Part shown: positions 14,226-64,000 of the stretch, piece by piece
Numbering within the stretch: position 1 is the first letter of the stretch
Layout of the letters: the number at the start of each line of letters is the position of its first letter
NCBI GenBank assembly: GCA_022711765.1
Contig: JAKLEB010000002.1
Coordinates: forward strand, 422,368 to 486,367
Length of the DNA stretch: 64,000 bases
DNA from: Candidatus Krumholzibacteriota bacterium
GTDB lineage: Bacteria > Krumholzibacteriota > Krumholzibacteriia > LZORAL124-64-63
Reading direction: 5' to 3'
Translations under genes and position numbers: made by a program
Notes under the pieces: generated by a model
Databases searched by the model: none
Told to the model about the DNA's origin: nothing
The model's input: only the letters and a program-made list of their open reading frames with translations

Positions 14226-15212
14226 TCACCGCGCCGCCGGCACCGCCGCGCGGTCGGGCCGTGGCGTCGCCACCCCGCGCGCGAGATGGCGCGCGAGCGT
14301 GGCGGCGATCGGCAGGCCGGTCGCCATCTCCACGTAGAGGAACTGGCCCGCGGGGTTGATCTCCAGGAACACGTATTCGCCGCCGGGAGTGAGCCGCAGA
14401 TCGATGGCGCCGTACTCGAGGCCGAGCCGGCGCATGAGGGCGAGCAGCCGCGCCGAGACCGCCGGCGGCAATTCGTGCGCCCGGTACTCGATCTGCGAGT
14501 TGAACCGCACGTCCACCTTGTACTCGCCGGTCTGGGAGTGGGCCTCGGCGGCCAGGAGCTCCTCGCCGACGGCCGTGACCCGCAGGTCGACGACGGCCGG
14601 GATGTACTCCTGGAAGATGACAGGCGCGAGGCGGATCGCCTCGGCGTACGCCTCCTCTTCATCGCGCAGGATCCTGGTCTCGCGCCAGGCGTGGAAGTTC
14701 GCGAGGAACTGCTTGTAGACGACCTGGCCCGGGCGGTCGCGCCAAAAGGCGCGGGCCGCCTCCGGGTCGTTGGTCATGAGCGTCTCGGGAATGGCGAGCC
14801 CGACCTCCTTGGCGACCGCCAGCTGCCACGGCTTGTGGGCGGCCGCGGTGTCCGCGAAGATGTCGTTCACCCAGAGCGCGGCGCTGGTCTGCCACATCCC
14901 CTGGAACGCGGTGGCGGCTTCGCTCATCGCGAAGTGGCGCATCGCCGGATCCGACACCGCGGCAGGGATCCCGAATCCCTGGGGCCGGCGCCACCAGAAC
15001 GCCTTCACCTCGTCGAGCCCCACCCGCATCCCGTCGGGGAACGTCAGGGAGAGGTCGCGGGTACCGTTGCGGCCGAACCGCATGCCGAGGCTCATACGCA
15101 GGGGGAATTCGCCGAGGTCGAGGATCCGCACGCGGGTCTCGCCCAGGAGGGCCAGCTCCCGCATGACGGCCTGCGCGTGGATGTCCTCGGGGGCGGAGAT
15201 GATGAGGATCAT
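14226..15212 (-). CDS. RimK-like ATP-grasp peptide ligase, graspetide (MvdC/MvdD-like) macrocyclase
   Basis: FWWRRP, WVND...AAHKPWQL..AKEVGLAIPETLMTNDP, VVYKQF, APVIFQEYIP..DLRVTAVG, YGAIDL..TPGGEYVFLEINPAGQFL; directly downstream of a Thr/Lys/Asp/Glu repeat protein. Confidence 0.9.
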   Translation of the reverse strand: MILIISAPEDIHAQAVMRELALLGETRVRILDLGEFPLRMSLGMRFGRNGTRDLSLTFPDGMRVGLDEVKAFWWRRPQGFGIPAAVSDPAMRHFAMSEAATAFQGMWQTSAALWVNDIFADTAAAHKPWQLAVAKEVGLAIPETLMTNDPEAARAFWRDRPGQVVYKQFLANFHAWRETRILRDEEEAYAEAIRLAPVIFQEYIPAVVDLRVTAVGEELLAAEAHSQTGEYKVDVRFNSQIEYRAHELPPAVSARLLALMRRLGLEYGAIDLRLTPGGEYVFLEINPAGQFLYVEMATGLPIAATLARHLARGVATPRPDRAAVPAAR

Positions 15213-20675: not shown

Positions 20676-23228
20676 ATGCTTCGCTTCCCGGTCGGTTGCC
20701 TGGCGTTCGCGGCCCTGTGCGGATCGGTGTCGCCGCCCGGCGCGCCCGGCCGGGAGCCGCTGCCCTCGCCGGCGGATTCGGTCGTGGTGCGGCCGATCGC
20801 GGATCGGTACGCCGCGGGCTGGCTGCACCGCGCGCTGTTCGGCAGCGACTATCGCGACCTCTGGACGGCGCCGATCGCGGTGCCGGTCCTCGACCTCGCG
20901 ACCTTCGGCGGCGGCGTCGTGCCCATCTCGCGCGGGGGCGGTCAGCAGACGACGTCCCTGCGACTGCGCGCGGCCGACGGCCAGGAGTACTACTTCCGTT
21001 CGATCGACAAGAATCCAGCCGCGGGCTTGCCGCCGGAGCTGGTCGACACCGTCGTCGCCTCGGTGGTCCAGGATCAGACGTGCGCGACGTTTCCAGCCGG
21101 AGCCCTGCTGGTGGCTCCCCTGCTCGCGGCGGCCGGCGTGCTGCATGGCGAGCCGCGCCTGTACGTCCTGCCGGACGACGAACGCCTCGGCGAGTTTCGC
21201 GACCTGGCCGGACTCGCCGGGATCCTCGAGCCGCGCATCGCGGACGGATGGGGCGGCGCGACCGAGGTCATCGGCGGCGACGAGCTGCTCCGCCGCCTGG
21301 CGGCGAGTCCCGACGACCGGGTCGACGCGCGGGCGTTCCTGAAGGCGCGCCTGCTGGACATCCTGGTCGGCGACTGGGACCGTCACCGCGACCAGTGGTC
21401 GTGGGCCCGGTTCGGGGACGAGCGCCCCCGTCGGTGGCTGCCGGTCCCGCGCGACCGCGACTTCGCCCTGGTCCACTACGAGGGGCTGGTGCTCGCGGCG
21501 GCGCGCATCCGCTTGCCCCAGCTGATCAGGTTCGAAGCCGAGTATCCGGACGTGCTGGGGCTGACCTGGAACGGCCGCGAGCTCGACCGCCGGCTCCTGG
21601 CCGGGGCGGACGCGGCGACCTGGAACGCCGTCGTGGCCGAGGTCCAGGCGGCGATCACCGACGAGGTCATCGCGGACGCCGTGCGCCGGCTGCCGCTGCC
21701 GTTCCAGGCGCTTCGCGGGGCCCGCCTGGCCGACGCGCTCGAGCGGCGGCGCGACGCTCTCGGCGCCGTGGCGCGGCAGTTCTACGCGATGCTGTCCGCC
21801 GAGGCCGAGATCCACGCGACCGACGTCGACGAGACCGCCGTCGTCACCGTGATCGACCGGCGGACCGTCGCCGTCCAGCTCTTCCGGGCCGGCGAACCTG
21901 GCGCGGCGCGCGGCATCCCGTACTTCGCACGGCGGTTCTCCCGCGACGACTCGCGGGAGGTCCGGCTCTTCCTGGGCGGCGGGCAGGATACCGTCCGGGT
22001 CGAAGGCCGGTCGCGACCGGACCTCGAGCTGCGGGTGATCGGCGGCGCCGGCGCGGACGTCGTGCTGGACCCGGGCGCGCTCGGCGGCCTGCGGATGTAC
22101 GACGAGGACCCGGGCACGGTCGTGACCGGCGGGGCGCCGCTGGACAGCCGGCCCTACTCGCCGCCGCCGAAACGCCACGCCAACGAGATCCCGCCCCGCG
22201 ACTGGGGCCACGCCTGGCAGCCGGCGGGTCTGCTCGCCGCGGGGCCGGACATCGGCGTCCTCTTCGGCGTCGGTCGGACCTACACGACGTACGGGTTCCG
22301 CAAGCACCCTTACGCGAGCGAGCAACGGCTCCGGCTCGGGTTCGCGACCGAGCCGGCGACCTTCCGGGCTGACTATCGCCTCCGGCTGCGGCGCGCCCAT
22401 TCGTCCCGGGTGACCCAGCTCGCGCTGCGGGCCTCCGGCTTCGAGGTCCTCCGCTTCCATGGCTTCGGGAACGAGGCGCCCGCGACCGGCGACGAGCGGT
22501 ACTACCGCGTCACCCACGAGCACTACGGGATGTGGTTGTCGGTCGTGGCGCCGCTCGGGCGTCTCGGCGAGATGACGGCCGGTCCGGTCGCCCGGTACCT
22601 GACGACCGACGATCGGCCCGACCGCTTCCTGGCGACGCTCGACCCCTACGGAGCGGGCCGGTTCGGGCAGATCGGCGCCCGGCTGGACGTCTCGCTGGGC
22701 GGCGCCGGCCGATCCGACGCCGCCTGGCCGAAATTGCGGGTCGACGTCGGGGGCAGCGTCTATCCACCGTGGTGGGACGTCTCGCGCAGCTACGGCGAGG
22801 TCCACGCCGAGGCCGCCGGAACGCTCCCCTTCACGGCGCCCCTCGATCCCGCATTGCGCCTGCGGGCCGGCGGCAAGATCCTCTGGGGTCCGTATCCCTT
22901 CTTCGACGCCGCGTTCATCGGCGACCAGGGCACCGTCCGCCTCGGCCGCCAGAACCGGTACGCGGGCGACGCGTCGAGCTACGGATCCGGCGAGCTGCGC
23001 CTCACGCTCGGCCGGGTGTTCCTGGGCGCGCCGTCGGACGTCGGGGTCTTCGGCCTGGTGGATACGGGACGCGTCTATCTCGAGGGCGAACGATCGCGAC
23101 GCTGGCACACCGCGACCGGCGGCGGCGTGTGGGTCGCGATCCTGGACCGCGCCAACACCATCAGCCTCGCCCTGGCCGGCAGCGAGGAGCGCACGGTCCT
23201 TTACTTCCAGGGCGGTTTCGGTTTCTGA
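20676..23228 (+). CDS. Outer-membrane Omp85/TamA-type barrel with N-terminal atypical kinase-like domain
   Basis: Signal-like N-terminus; SRGGGQQTTSLRL..YYFRSIDK, GDWDRHRDQW, PRDRDFAL; C-terminal strands RNRYAGD, VGVFGLVDTGRVY, LYFQGGFGF. Confidence 0.7.
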   Translation: MLRFPVGCLAFAALCGSVSPPGAPGREPLPSPADSVVVRPIADRYAAGWLHRALFGSDYRDLWTAPIAVPVLDLATFGGGVVPISRGGGQQTTSLRLRAADGQEYYFRSIDKNPAAGLPPELVDTVVASVVQDQTCATFPAGALLVAPLLAAAGVLHGEPRLYVLPDDERLGEFRDLAGLAGILEPRIADGWGGATEVIGGDELLRRLAASPDDRVDARAFLKARLLDILVGDWDRHRDQWSWARFGDERPRRWLPVPRDRDFALVHYEGLVLAAARIRLPQLIRFEAEYPDVLGLTWNGRELDRRLLAGADAATWNAVVAEVQAAITDEVIADAVRRLPLPFQALRGARLADALERRRDALGAVARQFYAMLSAEAEIHATDVDETAVVTVIDRRTVAVQLFRAGEPGAARGIPYFARRFSRDDSREVRLFLGGGQDTVRVEGRSRPDLELRVIGGAGADVVLDPGALGGLRMYDEDPGTVVTGGAPLDSRPYSPPPKRHANEIPPRDWGHAWQPAGLLAAGPDIGVLFGVGRTYTTYGFRKHPYASEQRLRLGFATEPATFRADYRLRLRRAHSSRVTQLALRASGFEVLRFHGFGNEAPATGDERYYRVTHEHYGMWLSVVAPLGRLGEMTAGPVARYLTTDDRPDRFLATLDPYGAGRFGQIGARLDVSLGGAGRSDAAWPKLRVDVGGSVYPPWWDVSRSYGEVHAEAAGTLPFTAPLDPALRLRAGGKILWGPYPFFDAAFIGDQGTVRLGRQNRYAGDASSYGSGELRLTLGRVFLGAPSDVGVFGLVDTGRVYLEGERSRRWHTATGGGVWVAILDRANTISLALAGSEERTVLYFQGGFGF

Positions 23229-25680: not shown

Positions 25681-26253
25681 ATGCGCATTTCGAGAACGGT
25701 GACTCTGCTGCTCGCCGCCGCCGCCGCCGCCGCCGCGACCGCCCAGGCTGCGCCGGACGGTGCGATCGGCGGGCGGATCGCGCTCAGCCGCCTCGTCCCG
25801 GACATCGTCATCCCCGCCGAATGGGGTGGCATCTGGGACGTCACCAGCACGACCTACGACTGCGAGACGAACGCCGTGACCGGTTCCGACGCCTACGCCG
25901 ACACGCTCTGCGCCGGCACCGTCCTCGATTTCGGCGACCCCGGCTTCGAGATCACCTGCACCGGCTCCGCCGACGGCAACACCATCACGTCCCATTGCAC
26001 GGGCTCGCTCGCGCTGAGCGACGACTGCACGATGAATTTCGACCTGCAGTCCACGACGACGCGCACCGGCGACACCTACGAGTCCGTCTCGACCATCAAC
26101 ACGACCTACGACGGCGCGGAGTGCGAATTCCTGCCCGATTCCTGCGACCGCGTGGAGACCACGGGCACGCGGACCGCGCCCGAGCCGGTCCCGTGCGGCA
26201 ACACGCCCGTCGAGACGGTCAGCTGGGGAACGGTCAAATCCCTGTACCGCTGA
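25681..26253 (+). CDS. Secreted Cys-rich protein with C-terminal TPVETVSWGTVKSLYR motif
   Basis: AGGAGG RBS, Ala-rich signal peptide, 8 Cys, Thr-rich beta content. Confidence 0.75.
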   Translation: MRISRTVTLLLAAAAAAAATAQAAPDGAIGGRIALSRLVPDIVIPAEWGGIWDVTSTTYDCETNAVTGSDAYADTLCAGTVLDFGDPGFEITCTGSADGNTITSHCTGSLALSDDCTMNFDLQSTTTRTGDTYESVSTINTTYDGAECEFLPDSCDRVETTGTRTAPEPVPCGNTPVETVSWGTVKSLYR

Positions 26254-26352: not shown

Positions 26353-28071
26353 TCACCGCACCAGCACCAGCTTCACCTGCCGGCTCGTCCCTCCGCCGCT
26401 CAGCCGCGCCAGGTACACCCCGCTCGGCATCTCGCGGCCGGCCTGATCGCGTCCGTCCCACGTCGCCGAGTGCCGGCCGATCGCGAGGACGCCCGACTGC
26501 AGCCGCCGCACGCAGCGCCCCCGCACGTCCAGGACCTCGAGGTCGACCGCGAGCGGGCGCGCCACCGAGAACGCGAGCCGCGTCAGGGGGTTGAACGGAT
26601 TCGGCCACGCCGGAGCCAGGGCGATGGGCGCCGCGGCGACCGGGCCGGCCGGCGCCGCCGTGACGTCCAGGTACTGGACCGCGGCCAGCGCGTCGAGGAT
26701 TCCCCAGCCGTAGTCGTTGTCCGGCGCGCCCGCGTGGTCGGCCGTGCTGCGCAGGGCCTCGCGCAGCCGGAAGGGGCTGGTTCCGGGATGGGCGCACAGC
26801 ACGAGCGCGCCGACGCCCGCGGCGAGCGGGCACGAGAAGCTGGTGCCCGACGCGTTCCCGTACTCGCTGAGCGACCCCGGCAACACGACGTGGTTGTTCA
26901 CGCCCAGGGCGCTGACGTCCGGCTTGATGCGGCCATCGGCCGTCGGGCCCGGCGAGCTGAAGTAGGCGATGTTACCCGAGAGGTCGACCGCGCCGACGGC
27001 GATCACGCTGTCCCCGTCGGCCGGCGCGGCGATCGTGCCGGTCGACTGGCGGTAGTTGCCGGCGCTGTTGAACACGGCGACGCCGAGAGCCGCGGCCTGG
27101 TCGGCGGCGATGGTGGTCGTGCAGGTGTTGCCGTCGAAGTCCGCGAACGTGTACCAGTCGTCGTACGCGAGGCTCGAGCTCACGAGGTCGCAGCCGTTGG
27201 CCTCGAGCCATTCGAGGCCCTCGACCCAGAAGTCCTCCTCCGCGGGCACCTCCTGGCCGATGTCCTCGGTCTTGGCGAGGTAGAAGGCCGCGGCGTAGGC
27301 GGGCCCGATGAGCGAGCCGGGCGCGTAGCCGCCGATCGTCGAGAGCGTCATCGTGCCGTGGTTGTCCTGGCCGCTGGGGTCGCCCGGCTCGTCGACCACG
27401 ACCGGGTCGTCGTTGACGAAATCCCAGGCGCCCCGCAGATCGAGGCTGGCGAAGGCCAGGTGGCTGGTGTCGAACCCCGAATCGAGCATGCCGATCACCA
27501 CGCCCTCGCCGTGGAACCCCAGGTCGTGGACGGGCGGGACGTTGACCTGCGCGAGCTCCGGCAGGCTCTCGCCGTACTCGAGGCGATCGGCACGGGGGCT
27601 CGCGGGCGCCGCGGGCTCGAGGACCGGGAGCGGCTCGCGCGGCGCGGCGCCCCTGACCGGCTCGAGCCGCGCGACGAACGGAAGGGCGGCCACGCGCGCC
27701 AGCTCGTCGGCGCCGAGGATCACGCTCGCCGCCGCGAGCCAGCGGCTCTCGGCGCGGATCTCGAGGCCGAGCGCGCGCAGCCCGGCGAGGTAGTCCGGGT
27801 CGTTCGGCAGGTCGATCGCGGTGACGAGCGGCAGGTCGCCCCGCGCACGCGCGCGACGCTCGAGCGACCGTTCGCTCAGCCGCTCGCCCGCAGCGACGAG
27901 GGCGGCGGGATCGCGCTCGAGGTCGCCCTTGTCGGCGAAGAAGACCCAGACCGGCCGCGGCCCCGATTCGAGAAGGGCCGGCAGTTCCTCCGCCACGTTG
28001 GCCGCGCGGGTCGCCGCGGCCGCCAGGCCGACCAGGGAGACCAGACCCAGCGCGCCGAAGATCCTCTGCAT
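26353..28071 (-). CDS. Secreted S8 (subtilisin-like) peptidase with FlgD-Ig/T9SS-like C-terminal domain
   Basis: Triad motifs MLDSGF, DNHGTMT, GTSFSCP; AWPNPFNP..WDGRDQAGREMPSGVYLARL. Confidence 0.9.
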   Translation of the reverse strand: MQRIFGALGLVSLVGLAAAATRAANVAEELPALLESGPRPVWVFFADKGDLERDPAALVAAGERLSERSLERRARARGDLPLVTAIDLPNDPDYLAGLRALGLEIRAESRWLAAASVILGADELARVAALPFVARLEPVRGAAPREPLPVLEPAAPASPRADRLEYGESLPELAQVNVPPVHDLGFHGEGVVIGMLDSGFDTSHLAFASLDLRGAWDFVNDDPVVVDEPGDPSGQDNHGTMTLSTIGGYAPGSLIGPAYAAAFYLAKTEDIGQEVPAEEDFWVEGLEWLEANGCDLVSSSLAYDDWYTFADFDGNTCTTTIAADQAAALGVAVFNSAGNYRQSTGTIAAPADGDSVIAVGAVDLSGNIAYFSSPGPTADGRIKPDVSALGVNNHVVLPGSLSEYGNASGTSFSCPLAAGVGALVLCAHPGTSPFRLREALRSTADHAGAPDNDYGWGILDALAAVQYLDVTAAPAGPVAAAPIALAPAWPNPFNPLTRLAFSVARPLAVDLEVLDVRGRCVRRLQSGVLAIGRHSATWDGRDQAGREMPSGVYLARLSGGGTSRQVKLVLVR

Positions 28072-28129: not shown

Positions 28130-29686
28130 TCACCGCACCAGGCTCACCTTCCGCGTGATCTCGACCCTGCCGGCCCGCAGGCGCAGCAGGTACGTTCCGG
28201 CGGGCGCCGCCCGCCCCGCCGCGTCCCGGCCGTCCCAGACCGCAGGCTGCGGACCGCCGTCGCGCCATCCGCTCACGAGCCGCGCGACGAGCCGGCCCGC
28301 GAGGTCGTACACGCCGAGGTCGACCGGGCCGGCGCGCGCCAGCGAGAAGCTCACCGCGCACCCCGGACTGGCCGGATTCGGCGCGGGGTCGCCGAGCGCC
28401 GTCACGCCCGCAAGCGGCACCGCCGTCGGGGCCTCGACCAGGGGCCAGCTCGCGAACCCGCTCACGGGCCACGACACCTCCTGCTCCGCCTCGTTCACGA
28501 ACCGGAACCGCGATCCCCACTGGCCGACCTCGAGGACGACGAGGCTCACGGTGTAAGGGCGGCCCACGGTGAGGTCGCCCTCGCCCGCGGCGAGCGCGTG
28601 CACGGTCTCGCGGCCGCCGGGGTCGCGCAGCACGAGGGTGGCCGTGACCGGCGCGTCCGCCTCGGCGTCGCTGTAGGTCACGGTCCAGGCGACCGTGCCG
28701 CCGGGGCTCGCCACGGCGGGCTCGCAGCCGGCGGCGTCGAGCTGCGGTCGCAGGTTGAGCTCGCGGGGCTGCCAGGTGTCCGAGCCGAAGCCGGTCCCGC
28801 TGTCGTAGGCGATCCAGAAGTAACCGAAGAGGCCGAAACGCTCGCCCCAGCTGTTCTTGGCGAGCCAGGCCTGGCGCGCGTCGTCGTAGCCCACGATCGC
28901 GACCGAGTGGCCGCCGTCGGGCGGGCTCACGCCGTCCCAGACGTAGATGCCCTCGGCGTAGGCGTAGAAATCCGTGTAGACCTGGAAGTTCGTGACCAGC
29001 GGGCCGTCCTGCAGCGCCAGGTTGATCGCGTCCGGGTCGATCGCGCCGGCCGTGACCTGCGCGTAGTCGCCGAGGTAGACGAGCCGGCCCAGGACGTCGG
29101 GGCAGGCGGCGTCGCAGGGCACCGCGTGGTCGGCCTGGTAGGGGAAGCAGGCCTCGTCGCAGATCCCGTCGGTCGTGAGGAACGCGAGCGCGCGGTCGCA
29201 CCACCCGCCGAAGCAGCTGCCGGCCGTGATGCAGGAGAGGACCCACTGCTCGGAGAGGTCGAGGTCGTCCTGGCCAGGCTCGCCGCTCGTGATCATCAAC
29301 CACGATTCCATCGCCGCGACGGCCGAGAAGTCCCAGCACGAGCCGCAATCCTCCTGGTTGCGGATCGGCGTGACCCAGTCGCCGCCCAGGTCCCGCCAGT
29401 CCAGGAGCACGGGGAGGTCGCGCGCGAGGCCGCTTCGCTCGGGACCGCGCCAGCCGACGGGCGCGGGCGAGCCGTTGCGGCGGCTGCGCTCGCCGGGAGG
29501 GAGGCGGAAGATGGGGTTGTCGCCGGCCTGCCAGGGCAGATCGAGACGCTCGATGTTCGCCTGGATGCGGGCGAGCTCGGCGGCCTGCGCCGGGGTGAGC
29601 GGCGGGGCGGCGGCGGGCGCCGCAGCCGAAACCGCCAGGCAGGCGGCCAGCAGCAGGACGTGGCGGTCGATCGCGGTCAGACGCAT
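28130..29686 (-). CDS. Secreted C1A (papain-like) cysteine peptidase with FlgD-Ig C-terminal domain
   Basis: NQEDCGSCWDFS, GHSVAIVGYD, WLAKNSWG; PAPNPASP..WDGRDAAGRAAPAGTYLLRL. Confidence 0.9.
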   Translation of the reverse strand: MRLTAIDRHVLLLAACLAVSAAAPAAAPPLTPAQAAELARIQANIERLDLPWQAGDNPIFRLPPGERSRRNGSPAPVGWRGPERSGLARDLPVLLDWRDLGGDWVTPIRNQEDCGSCWDFSAVAAMESWLMITSGEPGQDDLDLSEQWVLSCITAGSCFGGWCDRALAFLTTDGICDEACFPYQADHAVPCDAACPDVLGRLVYLGDYAQVTAGAIDPDAINLALQDGPLVTNFQVYTDFYAYAEGIYVWDGVSPPDGGHSVAIVGYDDARQAWLAKNSWGERFGLFGYFWIAYDSGTGFGSDTWQPRELNLRPQLDAAGCEPAVASPGGTVAWTVTYSDAEADAPVTATLVLRDPGGRETVHALAAGEGDLTVGRPYTVSLVVLEVGQWGSRFRFVNEAEQEVSWPVSGFASWPLVEAPTAVPLAGVTALGDPAPNPASPGCAVSFSLARAGPVDLGVYDLAGRLVARLVSGWRDGGPQPAVWDGRDAAGRAAPAGTYLLRLRAGRVEITRKVSLVR

Positions 29687-29853
29687 CCAGCGACAACTCC
29701 CGGCGTCGAGTGGGAATTCGATGATACCACGAATCGGCGCGGGGATACTACCTCGGCCGCGGTCCGGTATGGTATCGTCGGCCAGGCGATCTGACACAGA
29801 CAGCACTCCGGAGGCCGACGAGAGACGGAGAGCGAGCCCAGGGAGGAATCGGG

Positions 29854-35798: not shown

Positions 35799-37709
35799 CT
35801 ACTTCAGCAGCGTGCACTTCCGGCTCAGCTCGACCGCGCCCGCGCGCAGGCGGTAGACGTACGTCCCCGACGGCAGGTCCCGCGGCTGCCATGCGACGCG
35901 GTGCGGGCCGGCCGGCAAGTCGCCGTCCACCAGCCGCGCGACCTCGCGTCCGGCGAGGTCGTAGACCGTGAGCGACACCCGCGCCGCCTGCTCGAGGCCG
36001 AACGCGATGTCGGTCGCCGGGTTGAACGGATTGGGGCTGTTCTGCGCGAGCGCGACGGCCGCGGGCGCGTCGGGCGCTCCGGTGGTCGCGATCGTCTCGG
36101 CGATGAGGACGGCGCGCGAGACGAGGCCGTCGCCCACGCAGTGGTAGGTTCCCCAGTCGTCGGCGCCCACGGTCGCGAAGAGGAGGCTCGCCGCGGTCGC
36201 GCCGGGGATCGGCTGGCCGTCCCGGTACCACTGGTAGCTCGCCGCGTCGAGGCCGGATTCCAGGACGAACTCCGCGACAGCCAGGCCCGTGGCGCCCGTG
36301 CCCACGGCCTGGTCCGCCGTGCCCGCGAGCACGACCCGCAGGTTCTTGAAGGTGCCGGTGTTCGCGAGGTCGCCCAGGGCCGTGATCCGGACCGGATGCG
36401 CGCCGTCCTGGATGGTGCCCTCGTTGCGGAGCAGGCCCTCGACGACGACGTCCGCCTCGTCGTAGGTCCAGCTCGTCAACGTGCCGGTCACGGTGAGTCC
36501 GTCGGTGCACAGGACGTCGCCGGCCATGGCGACCTGGTCGGCGATCACCCCGCGGTCGATCGTCACGAACTGGACATAGCCGGTCCCGTCGACGCTGATC
36601 GCGTTGCCGTTCGCGAGGATCGTTCCCGACCCGATCGCGCCGTACCCCGTGAACCGCAGCGAGCAGCCCGGCTGCAGGACGAGCGAGCCCACGCCGAGGC
36701 CCAGCCCGCCGGCGAATCGCACCGGCGTGTCGGCGACGAGCGTGGCGGCCTGGAATTCGGGCAGGAAGATCGTGGCGCTGATGACCGCGCTGGGTCCCAT
36801 GCTCAGGTGGTGGACGGCGCCGACGCCGACGAGCTCGAGCTGGGGATTGGTGATCGAACCGTCGTTCTCGATGTTCCCGTGGACGCGGATCGGGAAGCTG
36901 TACTGGACGTTGCGGATCGTGCCGTGATTGATGAGATCGCCCTCGACCGTGACGGAGCCGCCGCCGGTGAACGTCGTGTTCTGCAGGATGTCCTCGACCG
37001 TGACGCGGGTCGTGAACGTCGCCGAGGCGACGTTGACCTCGCCGGCGAGCACCACGTCGTCGATCGTGCAGCCCTGGAGGTAGGACCAGCCGAGGACATG
37101 CATCGTGTTGCCGCCGGCCGCCAGGCTGCCGCTGAACGCGCCGATGTCGAGGCTGAACGGGCAGCCCGGCTCGAGGACCAGGCGGCCGCCGGTCATGTCC
37201 ACGTCGCCGGTCACGGACAGCGGCGTGGTGGCGATCAGATCGCCCGACGAGCCCGGGCCGTACGCGAAGTCGGTGGCGAACCCGTGGGTCGGCTCATGGC
37301 TCACGGACCGCGGCGCGGGGCCCGTGAGCGTCGTCTGGTAATTGGCCCAGACGCCCGCGTTGTGCAGGTCGCCGCCCACTTCGAGGAACAGATTGAACGA
37401 ACCGTCGTCGATCACGCCGTCGTTCGTGACCGCGCCGCTCACCTGGAGCTTGTTGCTGGGGCCGGCGAACGCGCCGGCCAGGGATCCGGACTGGTTGACG
37501 GCGAGGCTCCGGCAGATTGCCGTGCCGGCGATCGTGACGGGCCCGGCGAGCACGACGTCGTCGCCGCTGCCGGGAACGATGCCGCCGATCCACGTCGCGT
37601 TCGCGGACCAGAGGCCGCCCGCGGCGGTCGAGGTGATGGTCGCCGCCGCGGCGACGGTTGCTCCGAACGCGAGGACGAGGGCTAACGGAAGGATACGCGC
37701 GTGCGCCAT
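35799..37709 (-). CDS. Secreted beta-rich protein (G8-like start, Ig-like domain) with FlgD-Ig C-terminal domain
   Basis: Signal peptide, ITSTAAGGLWSANATW, YQWYRDGQPIPGAT, NSPNPFNP..PSGTYVYRL. Confidence 0.75.
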   Translation of the reverse strand: MAHARILPLALVLAFGATVAAAATITSTAAGGLWSANATWIGGIVPGSGDDVVLAGPVTIAGTAICRSLAVNQSGSLAGAFAGPSNKLQVSGAVTNDGVIDDGSFNLFLEVGGDLHNAGVWANYQTTLTGPAPRSVSHEPTHGFATDFAYGPGSSGDLIATTPLSVTGDVDMTGGRLVLEPGCPFSLDIGAFSGSLAAGGNTMHVLGWSYLQGCTIDDVVLAGEVNVASATFTTRVTVEDILQNTTFTGGGSVTVEGDLINHGTIRNVQYSFPIRVHGNIENDGSITNPQLELVGVGAVHHLSMGPSAVISATIFLPEFQAATLVADTPVRFAGGLGLGVGSLVLQPGCSLRFTGYGAIGSGTILANGNAISVDGTGYVQFVTIDRGVIADQVAMAGDVLCTDGLTVTGTLTSWTYDEADVVVEGLLRNEGTIQDGAHPVRITALGDLANTGTFKNLRVVLAGTADQAVGTGATGLAVAEFVLESGLDAASYQWYRDGQPIPGATAASLLFATVGADDWGTYHCVGDGLVSRAVLIAETIATTGAPDAPAAVALAQNSPNPFNPATDIAFGLEQAARVSLTVYDLAGREVARLVDGDLPAGPHRVAWQPRDLPSGTYVYRLRAGAVELSRKCTLLK

Positions 37710-37764
37710 GGTCTTCCCCCTGGTTCTGGTGGTCTGCCTGGGAAGATCCGGCCGGGGCCGCGAT

Positions 37765-37793
37765 ATCGTACCATATTTATCCGATTTAATCAA
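37765..37793 (-). promoter_or_regulatory. Sigma70-type promoter for 35799..37709
   Basis: Minus strand TTGATT-17 bp-TACGAT. Confidence 0.6.
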
Positions 37794-37971
37794 TCGGCCC
37801 GGCGGGGTCCGGCGGCGGACGCCGGCCGGCGGGCGCCAGTGGCGAGATCGGCAGCTCGGCCCTACAGATGGAGGTCGGCGGCGTCGCGAACCGCGCGGTC
37901 CGCCTTGGAGTTGCGGCGCCGGCGGCCTATCTTGGCCCGGCCACCCGGCGCTCGCGCCGTCCCGGAGGACC

Positions 37972-38889
37972 ATGCTCCCGCAGCTCGATCTCATCGACCT
38001 CGATCAGCCCGCGCTCGAGGGATACCGTCGCTTCGTCTCCTGCTGGCTGAGCCGAGGCGAGGGCCCCGCGTTCCTCGTCGATCCGGGTCCGACCTCGACG
38101 GCGCCGCGGTTGATCGAGCGGCTCCGGGCGCTCGGCGTGGCTCGCCTGGACTTCATCCTGCTCACCCACATCCACCTCGACCACGCCGGCGGGACCGCGC
38201 TGCTCGTCGACGCGTTTCCGGACGCGCGGGTCTTCTGTCACCAGAACGGCCGGCAGCACCTCGTCGAGCCGGCCCGGCTCTGGGAGGGGTCGCGCGCGGT
38301 GCTCGGCGAGGTGGCCGACCACTTCGGGGCGCCGCGACCGGTCCCCGACCGGGCGTTCGCCAGCCAGGCCGATCTCACGTCCGCCGGCATCGCGGTGGTC
38401 CCGACCCCCGGCCACGCGCCGCATCACCTGAGCTTCCTTCACGAGGGCACGCTCTTCGCCGGCGAGGCCGCCGGCACCTACCTCGAGCTTGCGCGCGGAC
38501 TCTGGTACTTGCGGCCGGCGACGCCGCCGCGCTTCTTCCTCGAGACGGCGCTGGCGAGCCTCGACCGGATGGTGGCCCTGACCCCGGAGCCGGCTCGACT
38601 CGCCTTCGCCCATCACGGGCTGCACGAGGGCCGGGTCCGCGATCTTTTGCGGCTCGCCGGCGAGCAGCTGGCGCAGTGGGTGCAGGCCGTGCGCCACGCG
38701 CTCGCCGAGGCGCCGCGGGCGGAATTCGCGGCGTTGCGGGAGACGGTCGTGGCGCGGCTCGCCGCGGCCGATCCCCATTTCGCGCTGCGCGCGGAATTGC
38801 CGCCGGACATCCGGGCGCGCGAAGAGGCCTTCACGACTCAGACTCTCCGGGGTATGGTCCAGTACGTTGCCGAGTGCGCGGGCCGCTAG
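37972..38889 (+). CDS. MBL-fold metallo-hydrolase
   Basis: LVDPGP, THIHLDHAGG, TPGHAPHH, FAGEAAG; GGAGG RBS. Confidence 0.9.
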   Translation: MLPQLDLIDLDQPALEGYRRFVSCWLSRGEGPAFLVDPGPTSTAPRLIERLRALGVARLDFILLTHIHLDHAGGTALLVDAFPDARVFCHQNGRQHLVEPARLWEGSRAVLGEVADHFGAPRPVPDRAFASQADLTSAGIAVVPTPGHAPHHLSFLHEGTLFAGEAAGTYLELARGLWYLRPATPPRFFLETALASLDRMVALTPEPARLAFAHHGLHEGRVRDLLRLAGEQLAQWVQAVRHALAEAPRAEFAALRETVVARLAAADPHFALRAELPPDIRAREEAFTTQTLRGMVQYVAECAGR

Positions 38890-42191: not shown

Positions 42192-42284
42192 CGCTGGCGC
42201 CGCCGCGCCGCCGCCGTATCTTGATCCCCACCACGACCGGCGACCGCCGCGCCCTTGCGGCGGTCGCTTCGCCGAGAGGGACCG

Positions 42285-43424
42285 ATGCGCCGACTCCGCC
42301 TGCTTTTGACCTGGCTCGCGCTCGTCCCGCTCGCCGGCACGACCGCGCCCGCCCGAGCCCAGACGCCGGAACCCAGCGAGGCCATGCGCGCGGTGCCGGC
42401 CGATTCGGCCGCCGACGTCGCCGAGACGCCGCCGCGCAGCGGTTGGTACTACGTGCTGCCGGTCGTCGCCTATTCGCCGGAGACGAAGTTCGCGTTCGGG
42501 GCGACCGCGGCGCGCTACTACCGCTTGAGCGACGAGCCTGACGCGCGGCCGACCACCATCTCGCCGCTCGCGATGGTGACGACCAACAGCCAGATCATAC
42601 TCGGCCTGTTCGGCGACCTGTGGTGGTCGGACGATCGCTGGCACCTCGCCACGAACCTGAGCTTCAGCAAGTACCCGACGCAATTCTACGGGATCGGCGA
42701 CGACACGCCGGCGTCCGCGGAGGAGGACTACACGCCGCGCACGGCCGAGCTGTTCGTGGATGTCTCGCGCGCGCTGTCGGGCGCGTTCTACCTGGGCGCG
42801 ATCGTGAATGCCAAGCACACGACCCTTCGGGACCTCGCGGATGGCGGCCTGCTCGCCGCGGGCGGCATCGCCGGCGCGGAAGGTGGCGCCCTCGTCGGCG
42901 CCGGCATCTCGGCCGCCTGGGACACGCGCGACGCCGTGCACTACCCGACCCGGGGCTGGTACCACCGCCTGGCCTGCGTCCGTTATCTGGACGGTCTCGG
43001 CAGCGACTTCACCTACACGGCGGTCGACCTGACGCTCACTCGCTACTGGTCGCTGGGCGGGGCCCGCGTCCTCGCCCTGAACCTCGCCGGAGCGTCGCTC
43101 GCCGGCGACCCCGTGCCGTTCTACGAGCTGAGCCGGCTCCGACTGCGCGGCTACTTCGAGGAACGCTACCTCGAGCGCCACGCCGTGCGGGCCCAGCTCG
43201 AGTTCCGGACCCCGGTCTGGCGCCGCCTCGGCGCCGCGGTCTTCGTGGGCGCCGGTGAGCTTGCCGCGCGCCTCGACCGGCTGCGCCTGGATGAGGTCTA
43301 CCCGGCGGCCGGCTGCGGCGTCCGCTACAACCTGGGGGGCGAGCAGCGGGCCAACCTGCGCCTCGACGTCGGGTTCGGCGACGGGGATAGCGGCGTCTAC
43401 GTCCGTTTCGCGGAGGCGTTCTAG
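42285..43424 (+). CDS. Omp85/TamA-type outer-membrane barrel (no obvious POTRA domains)
   Basis: Signal peptide, WDTRDAVHYPTRG, LRGYFEERY, NLRLDVGFG, C-terminal FAEAF. Confidence 0.8.
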   Translation: MRRLRLLLTWLALVPLAGTTAPARAQTPEPSEAMRAVPADSAADVAETPPRSGWYYVLPVVAYSPETKFAFGATAARYYRLSDEPDARPTTISPLAMVTTNSQIILGLFGDLWWSDDRWHLATNLSFSKYPTQFYGIGDDTPASAEEDYTPRTAELFVDVSRALSGAFYLGAIVNAKHTTLRDLADGGLLAAGGIAGAEGGALVGAGISAAWDTRDAVHYPTRGWYHRLACVRYLDGLGSDFTYTAVDLTLTRYWSLGGARVLALNLAGASLAGDPVPFYELSRLRLRGYFEERYLERHAVRAQLEFRTPVWRRLGAAVFVGAGELAARLDRLRLDEVYPAAGCGVRYNLGGEQRANLRLDVGFGDGDSGVYVRFAEAF

Positions 43425-43769: not shown

Positions 43770-44951
43770 GTGATTGCCAGGTTGACCGCGGTGCTGGTGG
43801 GGGTGCTGTCGATAGCGGCGGCCCCGACAGCCGCGCGGACATGGCACGTGGAAAAGGACGGTTCCGGGGACTACACGGTTATCTACGAGGCAGTGGACGC
43901 CGCCGCCGCCGGGGACACGATCCTGATTGGACCGGGGAGATTCGAAGAATACCGTCTCGAACCGGATTATGCCTCTGAGACCTACTGCTGTGTGCACGTT
44001 ACGACGTCCGATCTAACGCTCATCGGTAGTGGTGCGGAGGCAACCACGATCGGGCTGGATTACTTCGACCCGCATTACGAATACTACGTAATAGGAATCT
44101 CCAGTCTTGAGGTAGACGTCAATATTGAGAATTTAGCGGTGAATGGTGTCTTCGAGGGAGTCCATTTCGAAGGATCGAATTTGTATGTCCAGCATTGCGA
44201 CTTTGTCGATTGCGACGGCGGTGTCGTTACGTGGAGTGTTTCGGAGACCACAGTCAATCGGTGCCGCTTTATCGGCACTGTACATAATGGACTCTTTGGT
44301 GCCCACGCTAACGGAGTATCGGTTTCTGAGTGCGAATTTACGAATGTATCCAGGTATGCAATAACGGGCGTTGGAGGAGTAGGATGGGTAGTCCGCGATA
44401 CACAGTTCCACGACGGTAGCGGGGGCATACAGTTTGAGCAAGGAGCCACGGGGATTGTTGAAAGATGCTGCGTTCGAGTTGCCGGGGGGAATCCGCCGGC
44501 GATCGGCCTTCTCGATGGAACGTGTTTTGTTCTTCACGATAACGAATTTCAAGGTGAAACGTGGGCGGCAGGTTTTGCCACGGGCGGAACAACAGTTACG
44601 GCAAGAAACAACGTCTTCATTGGCGGAACGGGCACGACAATAGAGATCAACCGTACGCCGATGGACTTCCACCAGAACGACATCATCAACGGCGGCGGTC
44701 TGTCGGTCATCGCGAAATGGGAACGGGGATCCCTCGACGTACCCTACGATCTCGACCTCACTGGTAACTACTGGGGGACGGATAACCCAGCTCAGATCTC
44801 GGAGTGGATTGAGGATTACGGTGACCACGGCCCTATGGAGCTCTGGTGGTACGTGACAGTGCGCTACGATCCGTACGCGAGCGAATCAACCCCTGTCGAG
44901 TCTCACACGTGGACCGAGGTGAAGCAGATGTTCAGGCCGTCCGGGAGGTAG
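43770..44951 (+). CDS. Secreted right-handed parallel beta-helix protein with C-terminal TPVESHTWTEVKQMFR motif
   Basis: Signal peptide, WHVEKDGSGDYTVIYEAVDAAAAGDTILIGPG, beta-helix repeats, DLTGNYWGT; low-GC core. Confidence 0.8.
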   Translation: MIARLTAVLVGVLSIAAAPTAARTWHVEKDGSGDYTVIYEAVDAAAAGDTILIGPGRFEEYRLEPDYASETYCCVHVTTSDLTLIGSGAEATTIGLDYFDPHYEYYVIGISSLEVDVNIENLAVNGVFEGVHFEGSNLYVQHCDFVDCDGGVVTWSVSETTVNRCRFIGTVHNGLFGAHANGVSVSECEFTNVSRYAITGVGGVGWVVRDTQFHDGSGGIQFEQGATGIVERCCVRVAGGNPPAIGLLDGTCFVLHDNEFQGETWAAGFATGGTTVTARNNVFIGGTGTTIEINRTPMDFHQNDIINGGGLSVIAKWERGSLDVPYDLDLTGNYWGTDNPAQISEWIEDYGDHGPMELWWYVTVRYDPYASESTPVESHTWTEVKQMFRPSGR

Positions 44952-49113: not shown

Positions 49114-49297
49114 CGTCTGACTCCTTCCGGTTGGACACCGATGGCGCGCAACGTCGCGCCAGAGATATACGAACTCGGACTAAATTGGTAGTAATAAATT
49201 GCCTCCGGCCCGAACTTTTTTCGGCCCGGGGTGGACGCCGCCGGCGGGTCCGCCGACCATGGACGCGGCGGCGCGCGGGCGCCGCCGGAAGGATGGG

Positions 49298-53309: not shown

Positions 53310-53343
53310 CGGGGGTGCTCCGGGGCTGGGACGCTTGGCGAGG

Positions 53344-53372
53344 ATGGTACAGCCGCCGGCCGCGATTGCCAA
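53344..53372 (-). promoter_or_regulatory. Sigma70-type promoter of the patatin gene; a divergent TATAAT at 53400-53405 may serve the S8 gene
   Basis: Minus strand TTGGCA-17 bp-TACCAT. Confidence 0.55.
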
Positions 53373-53454
53373 GGGCAGCCGCGCCCGCCCGTTCTTTAGT
53401 ATAATGATCCATCGAGGGGGGTGGACGATGTCCCCGTCGCCGGAGACCCTGGCC

Positions 53455-56400: not shown

Positions 56401-57210
56401 GGCGGCGACTACGTCGTCACCGCGAGCAGGCCGGGCTACGCCACGGGGACCGCTGCCGTCAGCCTCGACGAGGGGGAGCAGCTCGCCGGGGTCGACTTCA
56501 TGCTCGTGCCGGTCGCCGAGGTCCACGTGGCGGCCGCGCCTCATCAGGAGATCCCCGACAACAGCGGACCCGGTCTGACGAGCCAGATCATGGTCGACGT
56601 GAGCGGCGAGCTGGTCGACGTCACGGTCGACATCGAGCTGGCGCATACCTGGATCGGCGACCTCGTCGTGCGCCTGACGAGCCCGGCCGGCACCGAGGTC
56701 ACGCTGCACAACCGGTCCGGCGGCAGCATGAACGACATCGTCGGCACCTGGCCGACCACGCTCTCGGTCGACGGCCCCGGCACGCTCGCGGATTACCTCG
56801 GCGAGGAGATCCACGGTCTCTGGACGCTCCTGGTCAGCGACCAGGCGAGCAACGACACCGGCACGCTCCACGTCTGGGGCCTGAACTTCCTGGTGCCGCA
56901 GCCGCCGGTGTCGCCGACCGAGACCCTGCCGTCGGCGACGCGGCTGGTGGGTTGCGTCCCCAATCCGTTCAATCCGCTGACCGAGGTCGTCTTCGACCTG
57001 GCCCGCGGCGGTCCGGTCCAGCTCGCCGTCTACGACCTGCGTGGTCGCCTCGTGCGCCGGCTGCTGGACGATGCGGTCGAGCCGGGCCGCCATCGCCTGC
57101 GCTGGGACGGCCGCGACGAGGGCGGCCGCGAGACGCCGAGCGGGGTCTACGTCTGCCGGTTCCGCGGGGATGGCACGACCGAGCGGTACAAGCTGACGCT
57201 GGTGCGGTAG
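53455..57210 (+). CDS. Large secreted multidomain S8 peptidase (Ig-like, carboxypeptidase-regulatory-like, P-domain, FlgD-Ig CTD)
   Basis: LLDSGF, DHGTRT, GTSYSCP; P-domain HTWIGDLVVRLTSPAG; VPNPFNP..WDGRDEGG; start GTG 53455 or ATG 53428. Confidence 0.9.
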   Translation: MKRFLLACALASVVVPALAQELPAGVAGRLARALADPGGTMRHADGSYAVWVRFTDRAIAADRLAGALAAAEAALPARTLARRAKVARPGERTVDARDLPVAPAYLAAVAATGARLRHESRWLNAASVDADRDQIAAIARLPFVASVDLVARFRRPAPPAEPAEREAARQAAETARAASSEHWTLGYGGSLAGLEQINVPPVHELGVTGQGVVIGLLDSGFRTTHEALAGISVLARHDFVQDDDVVENEPGDGPNQHDHGTRTLSLVAGFRAGRLAGAAFGASVILAKTEDVSHEAPIEEDRWVAGLEWVERLGADVVTSSLGYHDWYEFADLDGNTAVTTIAADLAAGRGLVVVNAAGNERRTSFGHLIAPADGDSVIAVGAVNLAGAVANFSSPGPTFDGRIKPDVVAQGVANHVASAITDDDYATADGTSYSCPLAAGVAALVLARVPQLTPLQVHEALRMTADRADAPDNDYGWGVLDALAAVTYWGASIDHAPLADTEDTVGPYVVAARITGRLPVDPARMFAAWRAGDGAWQSAPLVESSGGRWHALLPGQPGGTEVAYYLEVTDSAGITMRSPAAGAAAPLVFTVGPDETPPAVAHAPLGDQPLAIWPPLVSAIVTDNLGVERVELHFTRNGGAEQGPYPLAGAGDVYARAFPLAAGQVAVGDAISYRVDAWDRAEVPNRTTSGPHAFSVVSTRGVVLVIDDSDAGVRDEKVDERKAVVSAQVGRSSAAEFAQWLVEAGYTVEVIPAGAVTPESFAGFEVVVHSAGNSPAPLASPALREALIGWTAGGGRILVEGGEVGYDVLSFPGYPAFADSVLHAGAWRTDAAGALQVVPAQAGHPLLNLPHALPAAIPLSYGGYGDQDAVDPAAGATVVFAPVVHPASAGVLIHDDNEAPAAGQVVYFAFNVRAIGAETGRQLAENAVAYLLAAEAPPTASIAGTVELPGAGDAAGVVVSCGPGHSVVTGPDGSYLLDSLYGGDYVVTASRPGYATGTAAVSLDEGEQLAGVDFMLVPVAEVHVAAAPHQEIPDNSGPGLTSQIMVDVSGELVDVTVDIELAHTWIGDLVVRLTSPAGTEVTLHNRSGGSMNDIVGTWPTTLSVDGPGTLADYLGEEIHGLWTLLVSDQASNDTGTLHVWGLNFLVPQPPVSPTETLPSATRLVGCVPNPFNPLTEVVFDLARGGPVQLAVYDLRGRLVRRLLDDAVEPGRHRLRWDGRDEGGRETPSGVYVCRFRGDGTTERYKLTLVR

Positions 57211-57291
57211 CGAGATCTCGTCGACGGGTAGACGGCCGCGCGCGGCGGCCGTATCCTGCCGGGACGCGAGACGCCCAGCGGGAGGTTGACC

Positions 57292-59773: not shown

Positions 59774-59934
59774 GGGCGATCTCCATCGTGCGTGGGCGTC
59801 GGTCGGGGGCCGAGCATCGCGACTACCCGGCGCGGGCGGCGATTGTTCCCGGCGGATTGACCGCCGTCCCCCCGCCCGGTAACCTGTCACCTCGCGGCGC
59901 CGGATGCCGTCCGGCGGGAACGGAGAGCGACACC

Positions 59935-61374: not shown

Positions 61375-61384
61375 GCCGCCGGCC

Positions 61385-62176: not shown

Positions 62177-62194
62177 CGCGCCGCGCCGCGCCGC

Positions 62195-62223
62195 TTGCCT
62201 TGCCGGCGGCGTTCCGTTACCAT
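62195..62223 (+). promoter_or_regulatory. Sigma70-type promoter
   Basis: TTGCCT-17 bp-TACCAT upstream of GTG 62267. Confidence 0.55.
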
Positions 62224-62266
62224 GATAACACAGTGAAATGATAGGCTTTCAACCGGGAGTGACGCC

Positions 62267-62845
62267 GTGTCCCTCGGGCTCCATCGATCGCTCGGTTCGA
62301 CGCTGGCGGTGACGCTCGCGATCCTCGGTCTGGCCGCGCCGGCTGCCGCCCAGTACGTCGTCTTTCCGCGTCTCGGCCTGTCGGCGGCCCCGGACCGCTA
62401 CGAACCGAACATCGAGGTCCACGGCGACGATCCCTTCGACCTCTGGGTCCTCGTCCTGCCGCCCGAGGGCGAGGCGATGCTCGGCAACGAGTACGGCAGC
62501 TTCCACTGGGCGGTGCTCGAGGCCTGCTGCGGGGGCGCCGCGCGGATCGTCGCGCAGGACTACTCGCCGCTCTACCAGCACGAGGGCGACATCCTGTTCG
62601 GCATCGTCTCGTCGGCCCAGGAATGCGGGTCCGGCGACGTCATCGAGCTATGCCGGCTCACCCTCCAGATGACCGTCGACCTGTCGGGCCAGTACTTCAT
62701 CATCGCCGGCCCGCTCTCCCTCGCGTACACCTGCAACTTGGATGGCGTCGTGATGACCGACATGATGGTCTACGTGACCTACGTCGCGGACACGACGCCG
62801 GTCGAGCCGTCGAGCTGGAGCGAGGTCAAGAGCCTGTTCCGGTAG
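62267..62845 (+). CDS. Secreted protein with C-terminal TPVEPSSWSEVKSLFR motif
   Basis: GGGAG RBS + GTG, signal peptide, beta-sandwich-like body, 5 Cys. Confidence 0.75.
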   Translation: MSLGLHRSLGSTLAVTLAILGLAAPAAAQYVVFPRLGLSAAPDRYEPNIEVHGDDPFDLWVLVLPPEGEAMLGNEYGSFHWAVLEACCGGAARIVAQDYSPLYQHEGDILFGIVSSAQECGSGDVIELCRLTLQMTVDLSGQYFIIAGPLSLAYTCNLDGVVMTDMMVYVTYVADTTPVEPSSWSEVKSLFR

Positions 62846-63463: not shown

Positions 63464-63488
63464 TGGGTCGACATCCGCCGCAACAGTA

Positions 63489-63518
63489 GCCGGGGCCCCG
63501 CGAAATGTGAGCCCCGGC
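63489..63518. terminator. Hairpin between convergent genes
   Basis: GCCGGGGC-N14-GCCCCGGC. Confidence 0.5.
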
Positions 63519-63550: not shown

Positions 63551-64000
63551 CTATTTGATCATGGTCATGACCCTGGTCGCCTCGAGGTCGCCGACCCGCA
63601 GCCGCGACAGGTAACTGCCGCTCGGCAGTCGGTTGCCGCGGGCGTCTAGCCCGTCGAAGGCGGCCACGTGGCGGCCGACCGCGCCAGCGCCGGAAACGAG
63701 CGTGCGCACGACGCGCCCGCGCAGGTCGAGGACGTCGAGGCGGACCAACCCGCCGTCGCGATCGGCCGGCACCTCGTACGGGATGCTGGTCGAAGGGTTG
63801 AACGGGTTAGGGAAGTTCGCCCCGAGCAGGGTCGCGCTGGCCGGCACGTCCTCGACCGGGGTGCCGGTCGGCAGGCGGTCGATCGCCTGCTGGAGCACGA
63901 TCGTCAGCGCGGGGATGTTCACGCTGCCCCGGTACTGGACGACGCCCTCGCCGTCGATGACGAAGCAGTAGTGGTAGCTGCAGTTGTACATCGACGGAGC
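63551..64000 (-). CDS. Secreted protein with FlgD-Ig C-terminal domain, possibly redoxin-like (5'-truncated)
   Basis: FVIDGEGVVQYRG, TPVE linker, NFPNPFNP..FDGLDARGNRLPSGSYLSRL; frame open to window edge. Confidence 0.75.
   Translation of the reverse strand, partial: APSMYNCSYHYCFVIDGEGVVQYRGSVNIPALTIVLQQAIDRLPTGTPVEDVPASATLLGANFPNPFNPSTSIPYEVPADRDGGLVRLDVLDLRGRVVRTLVSGAGAVGRHVAAFDGLDARGNRLPSGSYLSRLRVGDLEATRVMTMIK

Follow-up and report, generated by a model that had tools for sequence, protein, structure and literature searches.

A near-invariant C-terminal peptide on unrelated secreted proteins of Krumholzibacteriota and Eisenbacteria: a candidate envelope-targeting tag

Within the 64,000-nucleotide stretch of the 1.32-Mb Candidatus Krumholzibacteriota metagenomic contig JAKLEB010000002.1 analysed here (positions 422,368 to 486,367; hereafter the window, with a G+C content of 71%), three genes encode proteins, called A, B and C below, that carry signal peptides and end in nearly the same 16-residue peptide. 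This peptide, the tag, is composed of an acidic box, T-P-V-E, two variable residues and, running up to the stop codon, the basic core [S/T]-W-G-x-[I/V]-K-A-L-[Y/F]-R. The three open reading frames (ORFs) and their tags are located as follows.

25681..26253, + strand: protein A (190 aa), ORF with signal peptide, Cys-rich, beta-rich body and C-terminal tag
25681..25749, + strand: predicted Sec signal peptide of A, MRISRTVTLLLAAAAAAAATAQA followed by AP, boundary approximate (n/h/c-region heuristic)
26203..26250, + strand: tag of A, TPVETVSWGTVKSLYR, with the stop codon (26251-26253) immediately after (translation, regular expression and DNA pattern)
43770..44951, + strand: protein B (393 aa), ORF with signal peptide, right-handed beta-helix and tag plus PSGR
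44889..44936, + strand: tag of B, TPVESHTWTEVKQMFR, then four additional residues (44937-44948) and the stop codon
62267..62845, + strand: protein C (192 aa), ORF with signal peptide, cohesin-like beta-sandwich and C-terminal tag
62795..62842, + strand: tag of C, TPVEPSSWSEVKSLFR, with the stop codon immediately after (translation, regular expression and DNA pattern)

The translations of the three tails (26203-26253, 44889-44951 and 62795-62845) agree exactly with those given in an earlier note on this DNA, which had been made from the sequence alone, and yield the 16-residue consensus TPVExx[ST]WxxVKx[LM][FY]R. A six-frame search of the 64 kb with a regular expression found these three matches only, each 0-4 residues before a stop codon, and a degenerate DNA pattern of the 16 residues likewise matched three times, whereas 100 shuffles that preserve dinucleotides gave 0.00 matches on average. 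Tags are thus present on 3 of about 50 window genes (about 6%). The bodies that carry them are mutually unrelated, as the earlier note had proposed, comprising a Cys-rich beta protein, a beta-helix (PF13229) and a cohesin-like beta-sandwich, and all three begin with the n-region, h-region and AxA-like site of a signal peptide, by heuristic reading rather than by SignalP.

Protein A has no match in Pfam or NCBIfam, and a structure search of the PDB with its fold returned no significant match; its orthologues share eight invariant Cys residues and all retain the tail. In its AlphaFold2 model the beta-rich body reaches a predicted local distance difference test score (pLDDT) of 85-93 and the tail stays below 50. 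Protein B matches Beta_helix (PF13229, E=7.9e-17) and NosD (PF05048), its body clusters with tail-bearing proteins of the sampled loci L054, L065 and L086, and its Krumholzibacteriia orthologue at locus L133 terminates in TPVERRSLSEIKRLFR. Protein C has 40 homologues, the sole named one coming from Candidatus Krumholzibacteriia. Its AlphaFold2 model (mean pLDDT 87.6) shows a body up to about residue 173, a coil at residues 174-183 and a helix at residues 184-190 (pLDDT about 50), and its closest structural neighbours are cohesin modules (Foldseek, E about 4e-5).

The tag extends far beyond this window. One genome per GTDB species was scanned at the DNA level with the 16-residue degenerate pattern, written without a stop codon and expected by our own estimate to give roughly one chance match; at least 118 tag loci were found in about 50 metagenome-assembled genomes, mostly labelled Candidatus Eisenbacteria, Krumholzibacteriia, Effluviviaceae or just 'bacterium'. 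Among the matches listed, 122/122 lie within six residues of a stop codon and 110/122 directly before it, and the wider consensus is TPVExx[ST]WGx[IV]KAL[YF]R. The Eisenbacteria form, TPVExx[ST]WGxIKALYR, bears out the statement in the earlier note that WGxIK-like tails occur in related candidate phyla. To remove the bias of the pattern, the core-only expression W[GSAT]x[IVLM]Kx[LFIM][FYW] was run on the same 829 kb and yielded 40 additional tails, 39 of them within eight residues of a stop codon. Even where the box was not part of the query, its four positions are occupied by T in 83%, P in 95%, V in 96% and E in 92% of tails, and the end residue is Arg in 131/133 and either Arg or Lys in 133/133.

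The terminal position of the motif is equally sharp in searches that score every position. A position-specific scoring matrix (PSSM) gave 143 C-terminal matches and one elsewhere in coding-like ORFs (274,375 positions), and 168 C-terminal matches and two elsewhere in all six frames of the 829 kb (1.25 million positions). An exhaustive hmmsearch of 1.84 billion representative proteins, with a profile built from the window sequences and database fragments, retrieved at least 356 protein clusters at E<=1e-3, which must be taken as a minimum, since a motif of only 16 residues hardly attains this threshold. Of 145 newly listed best matches, 143 have the core; only the final residue follows it in 121/143, and it lies no more than 11 residues from the end in 142/143, the exception being P0074, a protein with four copies of the motif. 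A word-indexed protein search with a 40-residue tail profile, which retrieved few candidates, yielded 15 short gene fragments and nothing else. Frequent internal occurrence, which would have spoken against a terminal signal, is not seen: the matches of the regular expression, the PSSM, the core-only expression and hmmsearch are essentially all terminal. No description of the tag was found in the literature searched by motif, by literal strings or by phylum plus sorting and type IX secretion system (T9SS) terms, comparison of the consensus tail with PDB sequences gave chance-level matches only, and nearly all carriers are currently annotated as 'hypothetical' with no localisation assigned.

The proteins that end in the tag have little else in common. 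With signal peptide and tail removed, 97 carriers form 44 clusters without blastp similarity at 1e-5, and their domains include Beta_helix, CHRD, CBM96, NIDO, FG-GAP, cupredoxin, Dockerin_1 and Spondin_N; no Pfam or NCBIfam model is common to the carriers, and the isolated tails match nothing in either collection even at E<=10. In the AlphaFold models of A and C the confident body stops 10-20 residues before the C-terminus, and the tail follows a low-confidence linker as coil or as a seven-residue helix (pLDDT 33-57). The tag is therefore a modular, portable C-terminal unit on unrelated signal-peptide proteins. Just upstream of it, at two to three residues from the TPVE box, there is an enrichment of Cys (19/133 at position -17), so that the folded body often ends in a disulfide just before the linker.

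Conservation of the tag is maintained at the protein level. The tail is retained even by orthologues that share only 34% identity with A or 33% with C, while its codons vary synonymously at every position: T, P, V, G and A are each encoded with any of the four third bases, and the codon families themselves change, Ser being encoded by AGY and TCN, Arg by CGN and AGR, and Leu by CTN and TTR. This variation excludes a conserved DNA element as the cause. It bears directly on the view that there is no tag at all, and that the repeated peptide forms the closing structural element of a single domain family or is the by-product of a 3'-end DNA element such as a terminator, a repeat or the end of a mobile element. 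The repetition itself could be taken in favour of this view, as could the overuse of the stop codon TAG, which closes 76% of tail genes (105/138) against 49% of the remaining ORFs of these loci (p=1e-8). The 44 unrelated body clusters with their different Pfam domains, the position of the tail outside the predicted folds, and the variation of third positions and codon families under fixed amino acids all oppose it; the explanation is refuted as far as sequence analysis can do so, and is regarded as extremely improbable. The TAG codon also ends 63% of the genes for the long C-terminal domains described below, and its excess may reflect expression level or a noisy background set of ORFs.

Coupling of the tag to export is strong. 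By a heuristic reading, signal-peptide-like N-termini are present in 116/122 complete tail ORFs (95%) and in 188/775 other ORFs (24%; Fisher p=5e-54), and the same heuristic finds them in 15/17 ORFs with a long C-terminal domain. Tags are thus absent from cytoplasmic-type proteins, where their presence would have counted against a sorting signal. A credible lipobox is found in about 1/94 carriers, and the carriers are accordingly predicted to have signal-peptidase-I-type signal peptides and not to be lipoproteins.

The earlier note had further proposed that the short tag is an alternative to the long C-terminal domain (CTD), which is of T9SS type. The window holds both classes, three tags and five long CTDs, the latter at the following positions.

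26356..26607, - strand: long T9SS-type/FlgD_ig CTD of the S8 peptidase 26353-28071 (PF13860 E=7.7e-10; TIGR04183 residues 489-569)
28133..28381, - strand: long CTD of the papain-family peptidase 28130-29806 (PF13860 E=3.6e-8; TIGR04183 weak)
35802..36035, - strand: long CTD of the 731-aa protein 35799-37994 (TIGR04183 E=1.6e-4; PF13860 E=1e-4)
56911..57207, + strand: SPTE box (56911-56922) and long CTD (from about 56959) of the S8/P-domain peptidase 53335-57210
63554..63862, - strand: TPVE box (63851-63862) and long CTD of the FlgD_ig protein 63551-63991, whose gene runs past the window end and whose orthologues have 198-199 aa

Both signals are C-terminal, are found on Sec-exported proteins of many unrelated families and occur in the same genomes, and homologous bodies bear either one. 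The tail protein of locus L065 shares 39% identity with a long-CTD homologue at L112 (E=1e-35), the tail proteins of L068 and L111 match a long-CTD homologue at L005 (E=1.6e-49), and further exchanges are seen between two adjacent genes of L099 and between L046 and L078. Some carrier bodies also match the NCBIfam choice-of-anchor V, DNRLRE, spondin, PEP-CTERM PepA-like and MYXO-CTERM MXAN_6652-like families; the tag is interchangeable with the anchors of other lineages as well, these bodies belonging to families that NCBIfam delimits by a choice among anchors or that bear different sorting signals elsewhere. Comparative evidence thus supports a role of the tag in sorting or anchoring, in place of the long CTD.

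A second link between the two classes is the box. The earlier note had observed a TPVE/SPTE-like linker ahead of the long CTD in two window proteins, and this holds: TPVE stands 17 residues before PNPFNP in 63551-63991 (- strand) and SPTE 16 residues before PNPFNP in the 53335-57210 protein. More widely, a [ST][GP][VI][DE] box is located 17-20 residues before PNPFNP in 10/24 (10/31) long-CTD proteins, where about 0.5% would be expected; the ten boxed proteins represent about six independent families. Boxes upstream of the long CTD, present in about a third of cases, were noted in the window and at loci L004, L048, L058, L065, L069, L072, L088, L090 and L108, and may mark a processing site particular to this lineage. 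The tag and the T9SS CTD, both found in bacteria of the Fibrobacteres-Chlorobi-Bacteroidetes group, are each preceded by a T-[G/P]-V-[D/E] box.

This shared box is one ground for regarding the tag as a collapsed T9SS signal, served by the same type IX machinery and sortase-like peptidase and cleaved at the box. Of the CTD, such a tag would have kept the extremities alone: the T-[G/P]-V-[D/E] processing box at the front and a K-x-L-hydrophobic-basic strand at the end. The distance from box to PNPFNP (17-18 aa) nearly matches the 16 aa of the tag, both classes terminate in L/hydrophobic/[KR]-stop, the two occur at times on adjacent genes (L004 and L058), and the exchange of classes between homologous bodies fits as well. 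Such an origin is nevertheless unlikely. Known T9SS signals are folded beta-sandwiches of 70-100 aa (about 80 residues is typical of the CTD domain), whereas the tag is an unstructured or marginally helical peptide whose 16 residues cannot fold in this way; it has no hidden Markov model (HMM) similarity to TIGR04183, PF18962 or PF13860, none of which matches A, B or C even though five neighbouring window proteins are matched; the terminal registers of the two classes are one residue apart; and the N-terminal and tandem copies described below would be senseless for a cleaved CTD. The cargo differs too, since the proteins with long CTDs are large (median length, stop to stop, 882 aa) and tag carriers small (277 aa).

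The earlier note had proposed an amphipathic helix. A seven-residue helix is predicted in C with a pLDDT of about 50, and a helical hydrophobic moment of 0.49-0.56 can be computed, but the tail of A is modelled as coil with a pLDDT below 50, 21% of shuffled sequences reach a moment as high, and the value equals the moment calculated for a beta-strand. The case for an amphipathic helix is weak, and a beta-hairpin around the conserved Gly would be equally possible. The tag also has a charge dipole, the box half carrying -1.3 and the core half +2.2.

These properties bear on the possibility that the tag needs no protein partner and serves as a peripheral anchor, its W/I/L/Y and K/R residues binding directly to the membrane interface or to an anionic polymer (lipopolysaccharide, phospholipid head groups), in the manner of the membrane-targeting sequence of MinD or the amphipathic helices at the C-termini of PBP5/6. 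Like the tag, these anchors are short terminal peptides of Trp or aliphatic and basic residues without a transmembrane segment. An invariant Trp, Lys and Arg among aliphatic residues is typical of interfacial peptides, the charge dipole and the short helix predicted in C would suit such a role, C-terminal extensions are tolerated, and tandem or two-end copies would increase avidity. Anchors of this kind are, however, conserved in character and normally poorly conserved in sequence, whereas T-P-V-E, W, K and R of the tag are near-invariant over at least 44 unrelated families and two phyla. The tag is also not clearly amphipathic, its hydrophobic moment being undistinctive against shuffles and its mean hydrophobicity about 0, and the helix spans at most 7-9 residues, is of low confidence and is absent in A. 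Direct binding without a partner is for these reasons a quite improbable explanation.

Additional copies of the motif were found in a small double-tag family, with members at L100 (JALGZD010000139.1, minus strand, whole contig) and in P0070, P0071, P0079, P0139 and P0097. In these proteins the mature N-terminus, directly after the signal peptide, carries the motif (for example SDRVEQSSWGSIKLLFRG); next come a domain of about 160 aa with only a non-significant SnoaL/DUF4440 hint, and the usual C-terminal tag; P0097 has the order domain-motif-domain-motif. A lipoprotein-like relative, P0074 (272 aa), has a signal that ends in SGC and four tandem copies of the motif at its C-terminus, 17-21 residues apart, and could be a multivalent scaffold or high-avidity binder. 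From the N-terminal and tandem copies it follows that the motif acts autonomously, as a terminal peptide whose copies can increase in number. A DNA pattern specific to the family matched only three contigs, and a single-protein locus search for relatives found none; the family was rejected as a candidate for the machinery of the tag, being too rare for a universal component.

The N-terminal copies are also hard to accommodate if the tag is a C-terminal pro-peptide or degron whose reader, either a periplasmic protease of the tail-specific or PDZ kind or a chaperone, would govern maturation or turnover and not location. A terminal, flexible and exposed tail would suit this role, and the conserved box could be a cleavage site. 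What tail-specific proteases and PDZ domains usually recognise, however, is a C-terminus that is free and non-polar, and the tag ends in Arg and tolerates 1-9 further residues; it would moreover be difficult to explain why one degron should be carried by dozens of unrelated surface-type domains that bear anchoring signals elsewhere. This explanation is considered very unlikely.

Variation within the tag offers a further view of how it may be read. In several Krumholzibacteriia the Trp is replaced by Leu or Phe, on orthologues of both C and B, and in these variants the terminal Arg is often Asp, Glu or Asn; such tails, which look like a diverged dialect, are found at L133 (1265-1309, + strand) and L126, and in P0004, P0010, P0012, P0017 and others. 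Three orthologous Krumholzibacteria loci of 11-20 kb contain no additional tail genes. The L/F variant, seen in two families, hints at a lineage-wide drift of the kind expected for a shared reader.

Taken as a whole, these sequence data suggest that the tag serves envelope targeting, as a portable peptide specific to the lineage that a single putative partner, common to all carriers, would read; this explanation is held to be rather probable. A single protein partner is proposed because the sequence of the tag is so extremely conserved across unrelated cargo. The carrier would be exported across the inner membrane by Sec, leaving the tail exposed on its flexible linker, where it would be read by a common putative envelope component, whether a receptor, a translocon or a peptidase. 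This reader would set the destination, most likely surface display or retention or else passage across the outer membrane, along a route that would run in parallel to that of the long T9SS-type CTD of mostly larger proteins in the same genomes; cleavage, if any, would presumably occur at the TPVE box.

Several observations weigh against parts of this model. No partner was found among the neighbours of tail genes in the sampled loci, which show ordinary synteny only. The destination need not be the surface, because cupredoxin and NosD-like beta-helix bodies are typically periplasmic. The tail is not always the very end, 12/122 tails carrying 1-6 residues after the terminal Arg, which means that a free carboxylate right after this residue is not required. 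The extra copies in the double-tag family favour a docking ligand over a classic cleaved C-terminal signal and so count against the option of cleavage. Finally, genome-specific 'dialects' of the tail, expected if a receptor had co-evolved with it, are only weakly detectable: same-genome tails of unrelated families are barely more alike than others (0.420 vs 0.402, with 17/1000 permutations as extreme).

The recurrent non-tail neighbours themselves comprise LeuRS, HflK/C-like, SHMT and MltG-like proteins and shadow ORFs, and were rejected as machinery since they are housekeeping genes in ordinary synteny.

In its logic the tag resembles C-terminal sorting signals that are already known. With sortase-type signals (LPXTG, PEP-CTERM, GlyGly-CTERM and MYXO-CTERM) it shares small size, C-terminal position, many unrelated cargo proteins per genome and body families of the 'choice-of-anchor' type, and its layout may be compared with theirs, a conserved box leading into a stretch of greater hydrophobicity and then a basic end. 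It differs from them in having no transmembrane helix and only 12 residues after the box, including an invariant Lys; the mean Eisenberg hydrophobicity of its last 10 residues is about -0.02, and with this composition the tag cannot cross the membrane to an intramembrane sortase. The TPVE box stands at a fixed distance from the end and matches none of the known sortase-type signatures, and the basic end consists of a single terminal Arg and a Lys four residues earlier rather than a cluster.

Encapsulin cargo-loading and microcompartment peptides are likewise short conserved terminal peptides on flexible linkers of unrelated cargo, are read by one protein partner and are possible at either terminus; they act in the cytoplasm on proteins without signal peptides, whereas 95% of tag carriers have them. 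The beta-signal of outer-membrane proteins (OMPs), read by BamA/Omp85, is another short C-terminal motif with aromatic residues near the end and lineage variants, but it ends in an aromatic residue on beta-barrels, whereas the tag ends in Arg on soluble folds; the true OMPs of the window (20676-23228, 42255-43424 and 49199-50518) all end in F. The tag therefore resembles C-terminal sorting signals in logic and lacks the defining feature of each class, be it the folded CTD, the transmembrane helix or the terminal aromatic residue.

A more specific form of the preferred reading, held only tentatively and somewhat short of an even chance, is that the tag, a 16-residue signal without a transmembrane segment, is the address label of an undescribed system by which diderm bacteria of the Eisenbacteria-Krumholzibacteriota lineage, and no others, would sort or display proteins, and which would have its own envelope receptor or processing enzyme. 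On this proposal the reader would be neither a relative of sortases or exosortases in the membrane nor the type IX machinery. Next to the long-CTD route, the system would handle tens of secreted proteins in each genome, most of them small.

The gene neighbourhoods of the three window proteins contain further features of interest. Directly upstream of protein A lies a TLC-family ATP/ADP translocase (PF03219; 24096-25574, - strand). Nucleotide transporters of this type are best known from obligate intracellular bacteria and plastids. Two of the OMPs named above, 20676-23228 (+ strand) and 42255-43424 (+ strand), belong to the Omp85 family; the second (389 aa, POTRA region not detected) is encoded immediately upstream of tail protein B, and neighbour clustering of the sampled loci revealed no recurrence of such an Omp85/tail-gene pairing. 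An ATP-grasp protein (14226-15212, - strand) carries the MvdD-type pre-ATP-grasp domain (PF21068), MvdD-type enzymes being those that cyclise microviridin-like peptides. Around protein C, synteny is conserved across Krumholzibacteria between window positions 53335-63991 and loci L122, L123 and L125, in the order S8/P-domain peptidase with long CTD, 300-aa secreted protein, (others), IspD, protein C, (others) and 198-aa FlgD_ig protein.

At protein C, locus L107 (453-1073) and related loci, the cohesin-like fold of the body of C has a counterpart in dockerin-type modules of the same lineages: one tail protein has a Dockerin_1 match, and dockerin-ended proteins adjoin tail genes. A cohesin-dockerin-like surface assembly may therefore exist in these phyla. 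Anchoring scaffoldins such as ScaE combine a cohesin with a surface-anchoring signal (LPXTG), and protein C, with its single cohesin-like module and tag, resembles them in this respect.

C-terminal sorting signals are the main handle for predicting the surface proteins of uncultured bacteria, and LPXTG, PEP-CTERM, GlyGly-CTERM and the T9SS CTD each led to the finding of a dedicated machine. The tag described here marks at least 356 protein clusters in two widespread, uncultured phyla, Krumholzibacteriota and Eisenbacteria, and its definition as a motif makes the reader machinery, cleavage and cohesin-like/dockerin surface assemblies directly testable. A tag of this kind would also represent a compact, transferable targeting peptide without a transmembrane helix, of a type not yet described for diderm bacteria.

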